Positions 4,116 through 64,000 of a DNA stretch of 64,000 nt are shown piece after piece. Origin of the DNA: Candidatus Magasanikiibacteriota bacterium (GTDB taxonomy: Bacteria; Patescibacteriota; Patescibacteriia; Magasanikbacterales; UBA922). The notes below the pieces were generated by a model that worked only from the letters and a program-made list of their open reading frames with translations, was not told the origin of the DNA and made no database searches. The position numbers and the translations under genes were made by a program. The DNA lies in the NCBI GenBank assembly GCA_041675185.1, contig JBAYUH010000002.1:1052-65051 (forward strand), read 5' to 3'. How positions within the stretch are numbered: the stretch's first letter is position 1; each line of letters begins with the position of its first letter.

Positions 4116-4400
4116 ATGCCTAAAAAAGAAGATAATAAAACAATTGGTATTAGAATAAGATTTTGGACTAATGATTTACCCGGTAAAGTTGGGAAAGATC
4201 ACAAACAAACTCCATGCTGGAGTTGTGGTGTGGTTATTATAGAAGCTAATAGAACAAAAGGTATTTCATCAGATAGTGAGGTATTCCATTATGTTGATGA
4301 CATTCCAAGAGCTGTTAAAGAAGTAATGAAAAGAGCGAAAATTGCTGTAGTGGAAAATGTGGCTAGTACTGACAGAGCAAAAAAGAGGATAGGAAAATAA
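4116..4400 (+). CDS. Hypothetical 94-aa protein
   Basis: Clean ORF 11 nt after the previous gene. Contains a CWSCG pair and no known motif. Confidence 0.4.
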   Translation: MPKKEDNKTIGIRIRFWTNDLPGKVGKDHKQTPCWSCGVVIIEANRTKGISSDSEVFHYVDDIPRAVKEVMKRAKIAVVENVASTDRAKKRIGK

Positions 4401-4467
4401 TAAATACCTCAGTGGATGTCATTAGTGTTTATGAGTTTTTAAAAAAATATAATTTTATTTTTATATT

Positions 4468-5298
4468 ATGCAAAAACAATTTTTAGTAGGTAGATACTAT
4501 TTCGACACGCTTTTTCGGGATGAAGCTAATAAGTCATTTATTTCTGATTTAACAAAGAAGCCTACTTTTGAAGAAGGTAATATTGGATATGCTTTAGCAA
4601 ATACATCTTTCGAGAAGGTGGGTGAAAGTAAGGAAAGCTTTTTGAGAGGAACATTCGCTAAATTTAAAATTAAGGATTATTACAAAAAATATCTCAAAAA
4701 AGAAAATGGCTTTCAAGAATCCATAACGGATAACAAAGTTGAATCTCAAATTGAATTTTTTCTCCACCATCCGTCCCATCTTATTTTTATTGAAAAATCT
4801 TCACAAATAAGAGAAAATATTTTTAAAAATAAATTCATTAAAATTTACGAAAAAAATACCTCAGTCACCAAGCCAAATATGGGTCTTGATTTTTTATTTG
4901 ATGAAAAAGATGTATATGAAGAAATAAAAAGTTGGGATAGAATAGTTAAAGCTAAATTTAATGATTTACGACCATCTAACCCGCGAATGGATCCACACTT
5001 TGAAAAAATTGAGGAATTATTAAAGGAAACAAAAAGTGATCGTTCTAAATTAGAATTTAAAATTGATGATCCAGATAGCACTAATTCCCTCGATTCAGAA
5101 AGTGTACTTATTAAACAAGCTCTCGCTTTGTCATCATATGGATATGGGAATGCAAATTTTGATGGGTTTAAAGGTAAAAATACAACTAATATCAAAACAA
5201 AAAAGTTTGTTAAATCAGTAAAACTTGATTTTGATTCAGAAACTCCCTTTAGTGTTGTAATAGATTTTATTGAAAAAGACGAAAAAGGAGAAATGTGA
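4468..5298 (+). CDS. Hypothetical 276-aa protein
   Basis: Long ORF in AT-rich context, same strand and operon-like spacing. No recognisable motif. Confidence 0.5.
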   Translation: MQKQFLVGRYYFDTLFRDEANKSFISDLTKKPTFEEGNIGYALANTSFEKVGESKESFLRGTFAKFKIKDYYKKYLKKENGFQESITDNKVESQIEFFLHHPSHLIFIEKSSQIRENIFKNKFIKIYEKNTSVTKPNMGLDFLFDEKDVYEEIKSWDRIVKAKFNDLRPSNPRMDPHFEKIEELLKETKSDRSKLEFKIDDPDSTNSLDSESVLIKQALALSSYGYGNANFDGFKGKNTTNIKTKKFVKSVKLDFDSETPFSVVIDFIEKDEKGEM

Positions 5299-5311
5299 TA
5301 TAATACTAGAT

Positions 5312-5842
5312 ATGAGTACTAATCTTGAAAAAAAATTTGGGTTTTTCTCAAAGATGTTCCAATTTGGTATTGGTAATATTTTTATTTCCCTTGATTTTTT
5401 TGTTGCTTTTTTAGTACTAATACTTTTATTTATTGATAATCACTTTAATTTAAAAATTTTTATTTCGATTGCAGAGGAAAGAAATGCCTATGTTCAGGTT
5501 ATTTTAAGTGCTTCTTCGATTCTTTTTGCACTCATTACCACTGCATTATCTATTATTTTATCTTTCTCAACTAGTAACTTTATCAAATTTTTAAAGAAAA
5601 AAGACATGCTAGATAGCGTACTTTTCCCTTTTTGGTTAGGAAATGCAATTTATCTTTTTACTATAATACTTTCCATTGTATATCTTCTACTAGAGCCGGC
5701 GACATGGATAAAAATAATACCATTTTTATTCATGTTTATAATTTTTTTGTTTATATATGCTATTGGTATTACTTTTTCCTTATTACGAACCATAATTCGT
5801 ATTGGTGAATGGATAGCTCAAAATGATGAAGATTTGGCGTAA
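5312..5842 (+). CDS. Hypothetical polytopic membrane protein (~176 aa)
   Basis: ATG at 5312 (the track start at 5270 is TTG and overlaps the previous gene). At least four hydrophobic helices. Confidence 0.45.
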   Translation: MSTNLEKKFGFFSKMFQFGIGNIFISLDFFVAFLVLILLFIDNHFNLKIFISIAEERNAYVQVILSASSILFALITTALSIILSFSTSNFIKFLKKKDMLDSVLFPFWLGNAIYLFTIILSIVYLLLEPATWIKIIPFLFMFIIFLFIYAIGITFSLLRTIIRIGEWIAQNDEDLA

Positions 5843-5934
5843 CGTCTTATTCAGTTCGAACAAAACGATATGGCTACAGGGGACATTCTCCCCTTTAATT
5901 CCCCTCTGTCCCCTTCCGCTATATTGACGAACGC

Positions 5935-5944
5935 CCCCCCCCCC
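5935..5944. repeat. C10 homopolymer tract inside a C-rich non-coding spacer
   Basis: The sequence gaacgccccccccccttcccc is seen directly and is unusual in this AT-rich genome. Confidence 0.9.
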
Positions 5945-6200
5945 TTCCCCTCTTTAATAAAATGGTAAAAACAAAAGACGAAAAAATAATTTACATCTGA
6001 TAACAGCCGATATATGATTACGCTCCCCACTAACGTGCGGTCGCTCCATCCATATCCCGTATTCTCGGGACATCATATATCGGCGTACGTTAGCTGAAAT
6101 AAAATTTTTACACTTTTTGTTTTTTGTGATTGAGTGATTGGCGAGGGCGAGGCTTTTATCTCTTTTATTCCTATCTTCCCTACCAAAAAAGCACTTTCCT

Positions 6201-6230
6201 TTGCGCGTATCTTGCGCGTATCTTGCGCGA
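6201..6230 (+). repeat. 11-bp direct repeat ttgcgcgtatc x2.7 overlapping the -35 of the fic promoter (candidate operator)
   Basis: ttgcgcgtatc ttgcgcgtatc ttgcgcga, seen directly. Confidence 0.8.
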
Positions 6231-6251
6231 ACCGCTGTTTTGTGATATAAT
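6223..6251 (+). promoter_or_regulatory. Sigma70-like promoter for fic: -35 ttgcgc, 17-bp spacer, extended -10 tgtgatataat
   Basis: Consensus-like hexamers with a TG extension 28 nt upstream of the ATG at 6279. Confidence 0.55.
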
Positions 6252-6278
6252 ACTGGTGTAACTTAAAAAACATATAAT

Positions 6279-7334
6279 ATGTTTAATCCTAAATACAAGC
6301 ACACTAATAAAATTTTACTCGACCTCACTGCTATCGCCGAGGCCAAGGGCATTATTGACCGTGCCAAAATTTTACCACAACAAGAAATAAAACTACGTCG
6401 ACAAGCCATTATCCGTATGACCCACCACTCTACCGAGATTGAAGGCAATAAATTAAATATGGGGCAGGTGGAAGCACTTTATGCTAAGAAAAAAGTAGAT
6501 GCGCCAGACAGGGATATTTACGAAGTAAAAAATTATCTCAACGCTTTAAAATTTATTGAAAAAGTTGTAATTGAACATAAACCAATAACTAAAAAAATAA
6601 TTTTAAAAATACATAAATTAGTCGCTGATAAAACTTTGGCACCGCAATATTGTGGGCATTTCCGCCCAGGACCAATTTATGTGGTTCGTCGACGTTTGGG
6701 CATGCCACAAGAAACTCTATACACCGGACCAGAAGCCAAGCGCGTGCCACAGCTTATAACCGAATTTATCGCATGGCTTAAAGAAAGCGAAAAACAAGAA
6801 ATAAGTCCAGTACTTGTAGCTGCTATTGCTCACATGGAAATCGCCGCTATTCACCCTTTTAACGACGGCAACGGTCGTACAGCTCGCGCTTTAGCCACTT
6901 TGATTCTTTACCAGCGTGGATACGATTTTCGTCGATTATTTGCATTGGAAGATTTTTATAATACTGACCGACCATCATATTACAAGGCCATCAACTTGGG
7001 TAAAACTTATGATGAACGACGTACAGACATTACATCGTGGTTAGAATATTTCGTAAAAGGATTTAAGAAAGAAATTGATGAGGTAAAAAACAAAGTCTTG
7101 CCATTATCTACTCGCAATGTTGACGGGAAAATTAAATCACAAATTTATCTCACTCCAGAACAATTAAAAATTATTGACTTCTTAGATCAAGTTGGAAGAA
7201 TTGTTGTAAAAGATGTCGAGGACATTTTATCTTGTCCACGCCGATCTGCACAGTTACAATTACAAAAATTAAAGAAAATTAAAATGATTAAAGCGATGGG
7301 TAAAGGAAAAACCACCGCCTACATTGCCAACTAA
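6279..7334 (+). CDS. fic: Fic-family protein (AMPylase/adenylyltransferase), class II autoinhibited, with C-terminal winged-helix domain (SoFic-like)
   Basis: Canonical Fic motif HPFNDGNGRTARAL (HxFx[DE]GNGRxxR). The N-terminal inhibitory motif STEIEGN matches [ST]xxxE[GN]. Length is 351 aa, and GC is noticeably higher than in neighbouring genes. Confidence 0.85.
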   Translation: MFNPKYKHTNKILLDLTAIAEAKGIIDRAKILPQQEIKLRRQAIIRMTHHSTEIEGNKLNMGQVEALYAKKKVDAPDRDIYEVKNYLNALKFIEKVVIEHKPITKKIILKIHKLVADKTLAPQYCGHFRPGPIYVVRRRLGMPQETLYTGPEAKRVPQLITEFIAWLKESEKQEISPVLVAAIAHMEIAAIHPFNDGNGRTARALATLILYQRGYDFRRLFALEDFYNTDRPSYYKAINLGKTYDERRTDITSWLEYFVKGFKKEIDEVKNKVLPLSTRNVDGKIKSQIYLTPEQLKIIDFLDQVGRIVVKDVEDILSCPRRSAQLQLQKLKKIKMIKAMGKGKTTAYIAN

Positions 7335-7353
7335 TAAAGCAATACAGCTACAT

Positions 7354-7818
7354 ATGAACTACAAACACACTCAAATTGGTTACCTGATGCTGGTTGTTAC
7401 GCTGGCCGTGCTGGTGATTTTCGTAAGATCTCATATCATGTCCGCCTCCGAGGTCCCTTCGGTTGATTCAGGCACAAATTTTGCAGTTACTTCCATAATG
7501 ACATTAATTCTATTTATTCTTACTTCCTTTGGGTCGCTTCAAGTAATTATTGACGAAAAATATTTACGAATCAAATTTGGCTATGGTATTTATCATAAAA
7601 AGTTTTCACTTGATGATATAATGTCTGCCAAAACCGTAAAGAATCATTGGTATTATGGATGGGGAATAAGAAGATGGTTGTGGCCAAAGATGTGGATTTA
7701 CAATGTTTCTGGTTTTGATGCGGTAGAAATAAAACTGAAAAATGGTAAAACGTACAGGATAGGCACCGATGAACCAAAAAAATTAGAACAAACAATTATT
7801 CATTCAATTAAATTATGA
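7354..7818 (+). CDS. Hypothetical membrane protein (two TM helices plus a soluble C-terminal domain)
   Basis: ATG at 7354 (the track start at 7324 is TTG overlapping the fic stop). Hydrophobic segments. Confidence 0.4.
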   Translation: MNYKHTQIGYLMLVVTLAVLVIFVRSHIMSASEVPSVDSGTNFAVTSIMTLILFILTSFGSLQVIIDEKYLRIKFGYGIYHKKFSLDDIMSAKTVKNHWYYGWGIRRWLWPKMWIYNVSGFDAVEIKLKNGKTYRIGTDEPKKLEQTIIHSIKL

Positions 7819-8081
7819 AAATTTTTATCGCTTCATTCATCACTATTTTTTTGGCAGAACTTGGTGACAAAACACAAATTGCCACATTATTATTTGCAGC
7901 AAACAAAGATCATTCCAAGCTAATAATCTTCCTTGGTGCAGCTTCAGCATTAGTCTTGACCAGTGCGATTGGTGTGCTGCTTGGAAGTACTTTATCTAAC
8001 TTTATAGATGAAAAAACACTAAAAATTATTGGCGGTGTAGGATTTCTTATTGTAGGTGTCTGGACAATTCTTTCGAAATAA
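7815..8081 (+). CDS. UPF0016/GDT1(TMEM165)-family half-size cation transporter subunit (88 aa)
   Basis: Signature E-x-G-D-K-T ([11 protein letters not shown]) plus three TM helices. Confidence 0.6.
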
Positions 8082-63590: not shown

Positions 63591-64000
63591 TCAGTTCTTC
63601 AGACAACGCACAGACAACCCGCTTGCCTTGGTGTTGAAGCTGTCGCGGTTCACTCTCGCCTCACTGGATTGGAAGTAGCGGTTCCATGCGACCGTGGCGG
63701 AATACTGCGAAGCAGACCAGAGGTAACCTTCCGTGCCTAGATTGAAGAACGAGCCATTCGTGGCGCGGAGGCCACCAAGGAGGAAGTTGAAACCGGAAGT
63801 ACCACCAGATTTAAGCTGTGTCCCTTGATTAGTACCACGGTATCCAGTTGCATCAACACATCCCGCCCCTGCTCCTGCACACATACCAAGATAAGATTCA
63901 AGCGTTTTAAACTCAGTATCAGTAGGAATATGCCAACCAGAAGGACAGATTCCTTGAGAGGGAGAAGATGGAGTACAAGAGTTAGTATTACAGGTAGTAG
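63591..64000 (-). CDS. Partial (C-terminal) Fibrobacter-succinogenes-major-paralogous-domain (Fib_succ_major/TIGR02145-like) protein, encoded in a GC-rich segment and continuing beyond the window
   Basis: C-terminus ...GYLWSASQYSATVAWNRYF...ASGLSVRCLKN matches the family's xFWSST...AW.R.L...GFSVRCVKD signature. GC is well above the genome background. Confidence 0.55.
   Translation of the reverse strand, partial: TTCNTNSCTPSSPSQGICPSGWHIPTDTEFKTLESYLGMCAGAGAGCVDATGYRGTNQGTQLKSGGTSGFNFLLGGLRATNGSFFNLGTEGYLWSASQYSATVAWNRYFQSSEARVNRDSFNTKASGLSVRCLKN

Follow-up and report, generated by a model that had tools for sequence, protein, structure and literature searches.

The window analysed here is a 64,000-nucleotide stretch of a Candidatus Magasanikiibacteriota contig (JBAYUH010000002.1), and its positions 5843-6278 form a spacer between the gene of a 176-residue membrane protein and fic. 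The spacer contains two structured elements, referred to below as hairpin A and site B, followed by the promoter region of fic. In what we consider the likely explanation, an integron-like system is widespread in Patescibacteria and the spacer forms a junction between two of its cassettes, with site B as a site of the attC type. Upstream of the spacer lie genes for a helicase-like protein and a type IIG restriction-modification enzyme, three small open reading frames (ORFs; one of them DUF4747) and the membrane-protein gene; fic, an ORF of 164 residues, GDT1, MscL and others lie downstream. The source is a Patescibacteria genome, and the close relatives of its fic are all from metagenome-assembled genomes (MAGs) of Patescibacteria. 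The contig recurs in an assembly of the European Nucleotide Archive (ENA) and, in pieces, in a Logan assembly. Labels such as L007 or L187 denote loci that were examined for comparison. The features of the locus are the following.

5312-5842, + strand: ORF of the 176-residue membrane protein, the end of the restriction/DUF4747 island (ORF list; a called gene in the same contig)
5866-5926, + strand: hairpin A, with stem arms 5868-5885 and 5907-5924 (repeat and fold evidence)
5934-5944, + strand: C11 tract between hairpin A and site B (counted)
5945-5992, + strand: A-rich linker with the left arm (5967-5987) of an outer inverted repeat (repeat list; DNA fold)
5993-6094, + strand: site B, an attC-like folded site (covariance model R1, 71.1 bits, E 3e-17)
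5998-6004, + strand: R''-like TGATAAC of site B, with AAC at 6002-6004 (sequence)
6006-6018 and 6072-6084, + strand: P1 stem of site B (covariation)
6050-6055, + strand: junction CCATAT of site B (sequence)
6056-6059 and 6066-6069, + strand: P3 hairpin of site B, CCCG and CGGG (covariance model)
6085-6088, + strand: spacer GTAC of site B (sequence)
6089-6091, + strand: GTT of site B, the start of the R'-like GTTAGCT (6089-6095), with the predicted crossover between G6089 and T6090
6095-6170, + strand: putative unit start between site B and the fic control region, not homologous to other fic loci
6171-6278, + strand: conserved fic control region (homology to 50+ fic loci starts at 6171-6201)
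6201-6211, 6212-6222 and 6223-6233, + strand: three 11-bp direct repeats (kept in 53 of 53 fic loci)
6223-6228, + strand: predicted -35 element of fic, TTGCGC, from the third repeat (sequence reading)
6243-6251, + strand: predicted extended -10 element of fic, TGaTATAAT, 17 nucleotides (nt) after the -35 (sequence reading)
6279-7334, + strand: fic, 351 residues, Fic/DOC domain with a C-terminal extension (Pfam PF02661, E 1e-17; PDB relatives)
7335-7351, + strand: remnant of the 3' hairpin A of fic itself, outer 5' arm (alignment; BLAST ends at 7338-7352)

The spacer is non-coding, as a preliminary description of this DNA had claimed: it has no supported ORF, and mechanical ORFs of 40-66 residues are all that could be read from it. 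Its GC content of 41.5%, compared to 33.0% for the window, places it in the top 2% of 436-nt windows, with C at 25.2% and G at 16.3%. The preliminary description had this shift in composition continue through fic. Sliding-window GC analysis supported the shift for the spacer, while for fic it is only modest (37.3%, top 8.6% of windows of the same size); the restriction island upstream has 28.7%. The C-tract reported as C10 at 5935-5944 is indeed present, and by count it is C11 at 5934-5944, the sole run of seven or more C or G in 64 kb. The perfect inverted repeat is present as well, although its arms are of 13 bp and 53 nt apart (GCCGATATATGAT at 6006-6018, ATCATATATCGGC at 6072-6084) in place of the 12 bp and about 55 bp reported. 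The 11-bp TTGCGCG repeats just before fic were described correctly, with TTGCGCGTATC at 6201 and 6212, followed by an imperfect copy, TTGCGCGAACC, at 6223. Segments of the spacer have no further copies elsewhere in the window, and the scan of the spacer for tRNA and tmRNA gave no match. The covariance search of Rfam, proposed earlier as a check on the spacer, found no family of non-coding RNA. Rfam 15 returned two tRNAs only for the whole window, noise only for the spacer at E≤10, zero matches at E≤1 for five loci that carry both A and B, and nothing for A or B at gathering and permissive thresholds in the window, the spacer and 18 related loci. Two predicted signals were discarded, namely a promoter-like TTTACA-17-TATGAT at 5990-6018 (one site, compared to 2.8 in shuffles) and a terminator inside hairpin A, which was spurious. 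The features described below stand above chance because they are conserved in other genomes, and not by statistics within the window.

Site B is a three-way junction of about 100 nt, in which the inverted repeat is the main stem, P1. The repeat had been regarded as a potential operator or recombination scar; it appears to be part of a recombination site, and a conserved and covarying stem speaks against a scar or an operator. With the search filters off, site B was the sole confident match of its covariance model in the window, the next best having 14.5 bits (E 0.18). RNAalifold, applied to an independent MAFFT alignment of 25 copies, gave 22 pairs, 17 of these with compensatory changes. Among 105 distinct sites from the covariance model, 92.8% of the cells in the stems were paired (62.4% when shuffled), double changes were present in 21 of the 22 pairs, and the covariation score was 0.67, compared to 0.15 in shuffles (0 of 500 reached it) and 0.05-0.09 in slid controls. 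The alignment of 105 sites is fitted to its model and favours structure, and the MAFFT alignment of 25 copies shows the same pattern. The ends of the site are the most constant in sequence. AAC is found at the 5' end of 100% of the 105 sites and is followed by A in 97%, the three positions of GTT at the 3' end are kept in 86, 96 and 98%, and the flanking purine and pyrimidine positions are partly kept. The copies also share an invariant TAT/ATA in the stem and the conserved unpaired motif TTCACCCAWATT at the junction. The length from R'' to R' is 98 nt in the window and mostly 80-200 nt in the family. The pairing is nearly purely Watson-Crick, with G.T in 1.5% and A.C in 1.8% of the paired cells, and the sense strand shows no surplus of G-U. 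RNA helices under selection usually tolerate such pairs. In P1, 22 A.C mismatches were counted on the top strand against 9 G.T, and each A.C would be a G.T on the bottom strand. This bias leans to the bottom strand, and the pattern is the one that would be expected of a folded DNA site. A riboswitch or 5' leader was ruled out, because 9 of 32 sites are followed by a convergent gene and because the downstream genes are mutually unrelated. Comparison by eye with hammerhead, twister, 5S, tRNA-like and retron folds disclosed no matching core, and these folds had no Rfam support. The Logan assembly of SRR6484325 breaks on either side of site B (L004 ends at 5961 and L002 starts at 6128); the unassembled segment 5962-6127 could reflect a repeat, a branch point or the dropout of a palindrome.

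Hairpin A begins 24 nt after the stop codon of the membrane-protein ORF. Its loop, ATTCTCCCCTTTAATTCCCCTCT (5885-5907), is C-rich and conserved, with the consensus ATTCACCCCT-N(1-8)-CCCCTCT; unlike the loop, the stem varies freely. Metagenome contigs scanned for the loop pattern yielded at least 120 loci. In 57 of the 123 matches listed, the flanks paired at 10 or more of 12 positions, and nearly all of these 57 were in contigs of low GC content. At least 63 distinct hairpins share the loop, and these have at least 41 distinct stems, whose arms are unrelated to those of other stems but complementary to each other. The plain MAFFT alignment gave no structure for hairpin A in RNAalifold because the stems are out of register in it, and the pairing was counted by a loop-anchored comparison instead. 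The stems contain 41 G.T and 28 A.C mismatches, with no strand-specific bias for G-U. Among the matches listed, 50 of 71 hairpins follow a co-directional stop codon at a distance of 0-80 nt (mostly less than 15). The genes ahead of them are mutually unrelated, with restriction and defence functions well represented. Of 95 B sites, 31 have a hairpin A, usually at 73-86 nt upstream of the site, and it was also seen in arrays that had been selected by their recombinase. The B sites that lack it mostly trail a stop codon directly. A coding function was ruled out, as the conserved loop falls in different reading frames among the copies. An attC site was ruled out as well, the ends of hairpin A (GTTTTG...CAAAAC) being of the opposite polarity.

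The loop of hairpin A (TTCACCCC..ATT) resembles the unpaired junction of site B. The family consensus TTCACCC(C/A)..ATT is found in both, at 5886-5900 and 6044-6055 of the window, where the two copies are slightly degenerate (TTCTCCCC and TCCATCCATAT). This likeness suggests, at the level of sequence, that one factor may bind both the A loop and the B junction. In four loci (L206:227, L160, L142 and L122) hybrid hairpins were found, in which arms of two stem types are joined at the loop, and in L024 (5-23) the A loop is fused directly to a fic promoter. The hybrids and the fusion thus indicate exchange at the conserved loop as well. Copies in tandem also occur, with A hairpins about 70 nt apart in L172 (- strand, near 297-389) and B sites back to back in L205 (1986-2200); these would be empty or ORF-less units. 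Viral contigs gave 45 matches to the loop pattern, mostly in one actinophage family near the terminase, which had poor stems and were judged to be chance. In this high-GC prophage family (L064-L103, many IMG/VR actinophage contigs) the exact loop ATTCACCCCTATACCCCCTCT lies between the genes of an HNH endonuclease and the small terminase, near cos. Another contig from IMG/VR (L089, 71 kb) carries a full A and B on the - strand, near 1214-1318, after a restriction-modification gene of 845 residues; this may reflect either the misclassification of a Patescibacteria contig as viral or a phage with a cassette.

In other contigs of Patescibacteria, B sites form arrays with one site per gene, all on a single strand in each locus. 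L187 has 8 sites in 10 kb, L193 has 7 in 4.5 kb, and L026 and L234 have 6 each. The 35 B matches in fic loci were all on the strand of fic. The cargo of the arrays is of the sort usually met in gene cassettes and comprises restriction enzymes, AadB-like proteins, NUDIX proteins, nitroreductases, NAPRTases, Fic proteins and kinases. We compared pairs of sites from different loci whose cores are at least 90% identical (n=13). The identity extended from AAC through GTT and was lost 0-3 nt later, and hence the comparison places the cassette boundary at GTT, as in integrons.

A tyrosine recombinase accompanies the arrays. A regex prefilter of the loci selected by hairpin A yielded 10 tyrosine recombinases of one family, of about 280 residues and 35-54% identical to the first aligned sequence. 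In 8 of these 10 loci the recombinase gene and the array are divergent, the gene being on the opposite strand and 0.8-3.2 kb upstream of the first B site. As an unbiased test, three homologues of the recombinase on long contigs were picked irrespective of A or B. In all three loci, B sites were found only on the opposite strand and only on the upstream side of the recombinase gene, after each small gene, and housekeeping genes occupied the side away from the array. The best solved relative of the recombinase is the integron integrase VchIntIA (PDB 2a3v, E 2e-44). It scores higher with models of integron integrases than with those of XerC and XerD, and most members pass the cut-off of NF040815 (“site-specific tyrosine recombinase/integron integrase”); both its length and its best match in NCBIfam are XerA-like.

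An alternative explanation is that A and B are RNA elements in the 3' untranslated region of the upstream gene, as a terminator, a processing site, an mRNA stabiliser or a 3'-derived small RNA. The strict orientation of both elements directly after co-directional stop codons is what such elements would show, and site B does not behave as a 5' leader, given the convergent next genes. The fold is also strong, with a z-score of -5 for the sense strand of 5990-6130, and the C-rich, G-free loop of hairpin A recalls anti-Shine-Dalgarno or Rho-binding sequences on a reading of its sequence. However, G-U pairing is almost nil and shows no bias for the sense strand, neither stem is followed by a U-tract, and no match to Rfam was found even at E≤1. 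Furthermore, RNA elements would leave unexplained the AAC and GTT ends, the breaks in homology exactly after GTT, and the constant presence of a divergent recombinase. We regard this explanation as unlikely, though it is the strongest competitor of the cassette junction.

The fic gene of the window belongs to a widely shared module. The Fic protein is 75-94% identical across about 59 MAGs of many Patescibacteria lineages, with labels such as Magasanikbacteria, Uhrbacteria, Parcubacteria, Peregrinibacteria, Gracilibacteria and Saccharibacteria, among others. The DNA homology of the window to 50+ other fic loci, as delimited by BLAST, has a sharp left edge at about 6171-6201 and extends to about 7338-7352. 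Judged by these homologies, fic is a horizontally mobile module. The preliminary description had the spacer and fic as one acquired insert. The horizontal spread of fic holds, but the single insert does not: the fic module starts only at about 6171-6200, and 5866-6094 corresponds to 3' elements that trail unrelated genes elsewhere. The intervening 6095-6170 holds the right arm of the outer inverted repeat (6104-6124) and a G-rich partner of the poly-C tract (6140-6152), and a similar right flank is present in L192. After the fic stop codon, 17 nt of the hairpin-A arm of the relatives are kept, up to GCTACA at 7351, and the sequences then diverge. Since the homology to the relatives stops at this point, we conclude that the A and B of fic itself were lost. 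In nine fic loci, the sequence directly after the fic stop codon matches 5860-6130 of the window, that is, the segment that precedes fic here. The only other locus with a B site just upstream of fic is L043, where a filler of 60 nt is unrelated.

The control region of fic is strongly conserved. Three TTGCGCGAWTN repeats precede the gene in 53 of 53 loci, with a spacing of 11 nt in 93 of 94 intervals, and they are kept even in loci where the Fic identity is only 55-65%. The suggestion of an operator, made earlier for these repeats, agrees with this conservation and with their 11-bp phasing, and from their sequence and position the phased repeats over the -35 element are most likely an operator. 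They resemble the helically phased direct-repeat operators on the promoters of autoregulated toxin and regulator genes, in that three 11-bp repeats are spaced by 11 bp, the last repeat forms the -35 element and the repeats are conserved together with the gene. In the case of fic, unlike in those systems, the binder is inferred: it may be the C-terminal part of the Fic protein. This part can be aligned with the C-terminal region of Fic proteins of solved structure, and it has a weak match to a regulator domain (E 0.007, under the cut-off of the family). An identical 14-mer with the extended -10 element, TGTGATATAATACT, is present before the membrane-protein ORF (5294-5307) and before fic (6241-6254). 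L016 carries two different genes of the Fic family in one array (4183-5283 and 6942-8000), one with Fic_N and Fic and the other of the type in the window, with NAPRTase, NUDIX and nitroreductase cassettes adjoining. Several MAGs with the fic module and B arrays (L008, L010, L022, L024, L026, L030 and others, from binchicken co-assemblies) are titled ‘uncultured Gammaproteobacteria’; this label is probably wrong, because their gene content and low GC content look like Patescibacteria.

Mobility could also be of another kind, with A and B as selfish palindromic repeats that resemble miniature inverted-repeat transposable elements (MITE) or repetitive extragenic palindromes (REP), and that are only by coincidence close to a recombinase and to accessory genes. 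Copies are numerous within a contig, some of them in tandem (L172 and L205), the hybrid hairpins are joined at the loop, and in the subfamily of the window an outer inverted repeat brackets site B. The family as a whole, however, has no target-site duplications or conserved terminal inverted repeats. Its stems differ wholly while loops and junctions are kept, the reverse of what a recently copied repeat would show, and the copies in arrays share one orientation that is tied to the genes and the recombinase. This makes selfish repeats a decidedly improbable account, less so only than a switch in the poly-C tract, which is considered further below.

The cassette junction accounts better for these observations, and site B does share a number of properties with the attC sites of integrons. 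It has the AAC...GTT core triplets in the same polarity (R'' RYYYAAC ... R' GTTRRRY), its structure is conserved while its sequence is free, and its length is in the attC range (about 57-141 nt). As with attC, the sites lie at the 3' ends of ORFs, in co-oriented arrays that lead away from a divergent tyrosine recombinase, the homology of cassettes ends at GTT, and the cargo is varied and accessory. Site B differs from attC by its conserved three-way junction with the unpaired TTCACCCAWATT, by the invariant TAT/ATA in the stem, and by the second conserved hairpin, A, that often precedes it. The recombinase likewise aligns with the integrase IntI (VchIntIA) over the N-terminal and catalytic parts, with the N-terminal SAM-like domain PF13495 and the motifs HxLRHSFATHLLE and LGH...TTQIY. 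In complete integrons the recombinase gene is next to the array and divergent from it; this is the arrangement of the relatives (8 of 10 and 3 of 3 loci), but not of the window. The site in the window is orphaned, as are those of the CALIN, in which clustered attC sites have no integron-integrase; these are defined by two or more attC sites with no integrase nearby, whereas only one is present in the window. The truncation of hairpin A behind fic suggests that a second site was once there and was lost. The sedentary chromosomal integrons with Vibrio cholerae repeats are comparable in their long and mutually similar sites, chromosomal arrays and fixed genomic location, whereas the B system has a different fold and recombinase type and belongs to another phylum. 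With the Xer/dif system, pdif modules and integrative mobile elements exploiting Xer (IMEX), the recombinase has in common that it is short and Xer-like, is located among housekeeping genes and may serve mobile modules as well. Sites of the dif type are, however, double-stranded and of 28 bp, with two 11-bp arms and a spacer of 6-8 bp, whereas B sites measure 80-200 nt, depend on a fold and occur once per gene in arrays.

We observed directly the conservation, structure, array architecture, recombinase linkage and homology breakpoints, and from these we infer the chemistry of recombination, the folding strand, a role for hairpin A and the function of the operator, as follows. The segment 5866-6094 would be the 3' end of the upstream unit, composed of hairpin A and then site B. 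Site B would fold on one DNA strand into the three-way junction. A tyrosine recombinase would bind this folded single strand and, by analogy with integrons, would exchange strands at GTT, between G6089 and T6090, so that whole cassettes could be cut out or inserted. The segment 6171-6278 would be the promoter of the fic cassette itself, with the phased repeats over the -35 element as its likely operator. The simplest history of the locus would then be a first cassette, which begins with the restriction island and ends with the 176-residue gene, A and B, followed by a second one with the fic promoter, fic, A and B, of which the A and B of fic were later deleted. From its sequence, the locus looks like a decayed remnant of two cassettes, since it has a single site, no recombinase in 64 kb, and an A and B of fic that are truncated at 7351. 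The preliminary description was thus right on horizontal transfer, recombination and the operator, wrong on the boundaries of the units, and probably wrong on the poly-C tract.

Several observations weigh against the assignment to an integron-like system. The window has one B site only, and no tyrosine recombinase is encoded in its 64 kb. The left edge of the fic homology (about 6171-6200) is off the predicted crossover between 6089 and 6090, which would require either that the 5' leader of the cassette evolves fast or that fic modules move by another route as well. The main stem of site B has no extrahelical bases, and the R-L spacer is paired and not open as in attC. P1 is a continuous helix of 10-13 bp that begins 1 nt after AAC, and its sole asymmetry is that of 1 nt versus 4 nt (A versus GAAC or GTAC) beside the R box. 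Canonical attC mechanics may therefore not apply. The recombinases score 197-231 bits with TIGR02249, below its cut-off of 265, and match it in two stretches. They have 20 residues where VchIntIA has 63, at the position of the additional domain specific to IntI, and so lack about 43 residues exactly there. A paper on archaeal integrons describes the additional domain as a defining feature that integron recombination needs (PMC9668308). The recombinase family also has a great many members: at E≤1e-30 it comprises more than 7000 proteins, many of them with the NCBI name of NF040815. Because its genes are located among housekeeping genes, the enzyme may double as a resolvase of the Xer type, or it may be an ordinary Xer-type dimer resolvase. 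In L234 (10001-15111) the distance of the array-linked recombinase gene is 2 kb to ftsK and 5 kb to recA, which fits an additional role as chromosome dimer resolvase. Finally, known integrons have nothing that corresponds to hairpin A, whose role the assignment leaves unexplained. The lack of the IntI domain in the recombinase and of extrahelical bases in site B sets the system apart from the integron family.

These departures from the canonical form bring us to a more tentative proposal, to which we give somewhat less than even chances. Patescibacteria might carry their own and possibly ancestral form of integron, with a short IntI/XerA-like recombinase, sites that fold into three-way junctions, and hairpin A as an accessory or cassette-forming module; the A loop and the B junction have the TTCACCC motif in common. 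How integrons arose from Xer-type recombination and how attC sites become attached to genes are open questions in the field. If the proposal is correct, the system would stand, as a living intermediate, between Xer recombination and classical integrons, and it would give fic and defence genes a route between the reduced genomes of Patescibacteria. These bacteria have tiny genomes and rely heavily on acquired genes, and a widespread cassette system would offer a concrete intermediate and explain why near-identical fic and restriction genes are found in distant lineages. The covariance model marks cassette boundaries that Rfam and protein annotation miss. For the window itself the gain is smaller, an unexplained spacer becoming an annotated junction. 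The literature on integrons and attC sites in Patescibacteria, the candidate phyla radiation (CPR), Parcubacteria and Saccharibacteria, as searched outside most subscription journals, holds no description of such a system. The wider cassette system appears to be undescribed in Rfam and in the searchable literature, which covers few subscription journals.

The poly-C tract belongs to a particular subfamily of the element (the window, L007, L011, L038, L192, L206 and L209). In the window it stands opposite the G-rich run GGCGAGGGCGAGG (6140-6152) in an outer palindrome, whose 21-nt arms (5967-5987 and 6104-6124, 81%) bracket site B; L192 and L011 have the same arrangement. The homologous copies in L038, L007, L206, L192, L209 and L011 have tracts of C5-C9 or double tracts. 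The earlier proposal of a slipped-strand site is without support. A phase-variation switch for fic in this tract, with spacer and fic as one acquired island, is the least probable of all the explanations considered, for although the tract is the only long homopolymer in the window, ranges from C5 to C11 among homologous copies in other genomes and is near a gene that has clearly spread horizontally, it is C11 in all three independent assemblies of the strain, lies about 300 nt upstream of the fic promoter as part of the upstream unit, outside the -35/-10 spacer and any ORF, and is missing from fic loci elsewhere that keep the promoter repeats.

Two further observations concern the rest of the window. 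The stretch 63600-63800 is the richest in G and in GC, with G at about 0.30-0.34 per 100-nt window, and had no Rfam match at the gathering threshold. In the ORF at 7324-7818, an A run differs by one base at 7688, being CCAAAG in the window and the Logan assembly and CCAAG in the ENA contig; as the ENA contig has no called gene there, the indel may be a frameshift or an assembly error.

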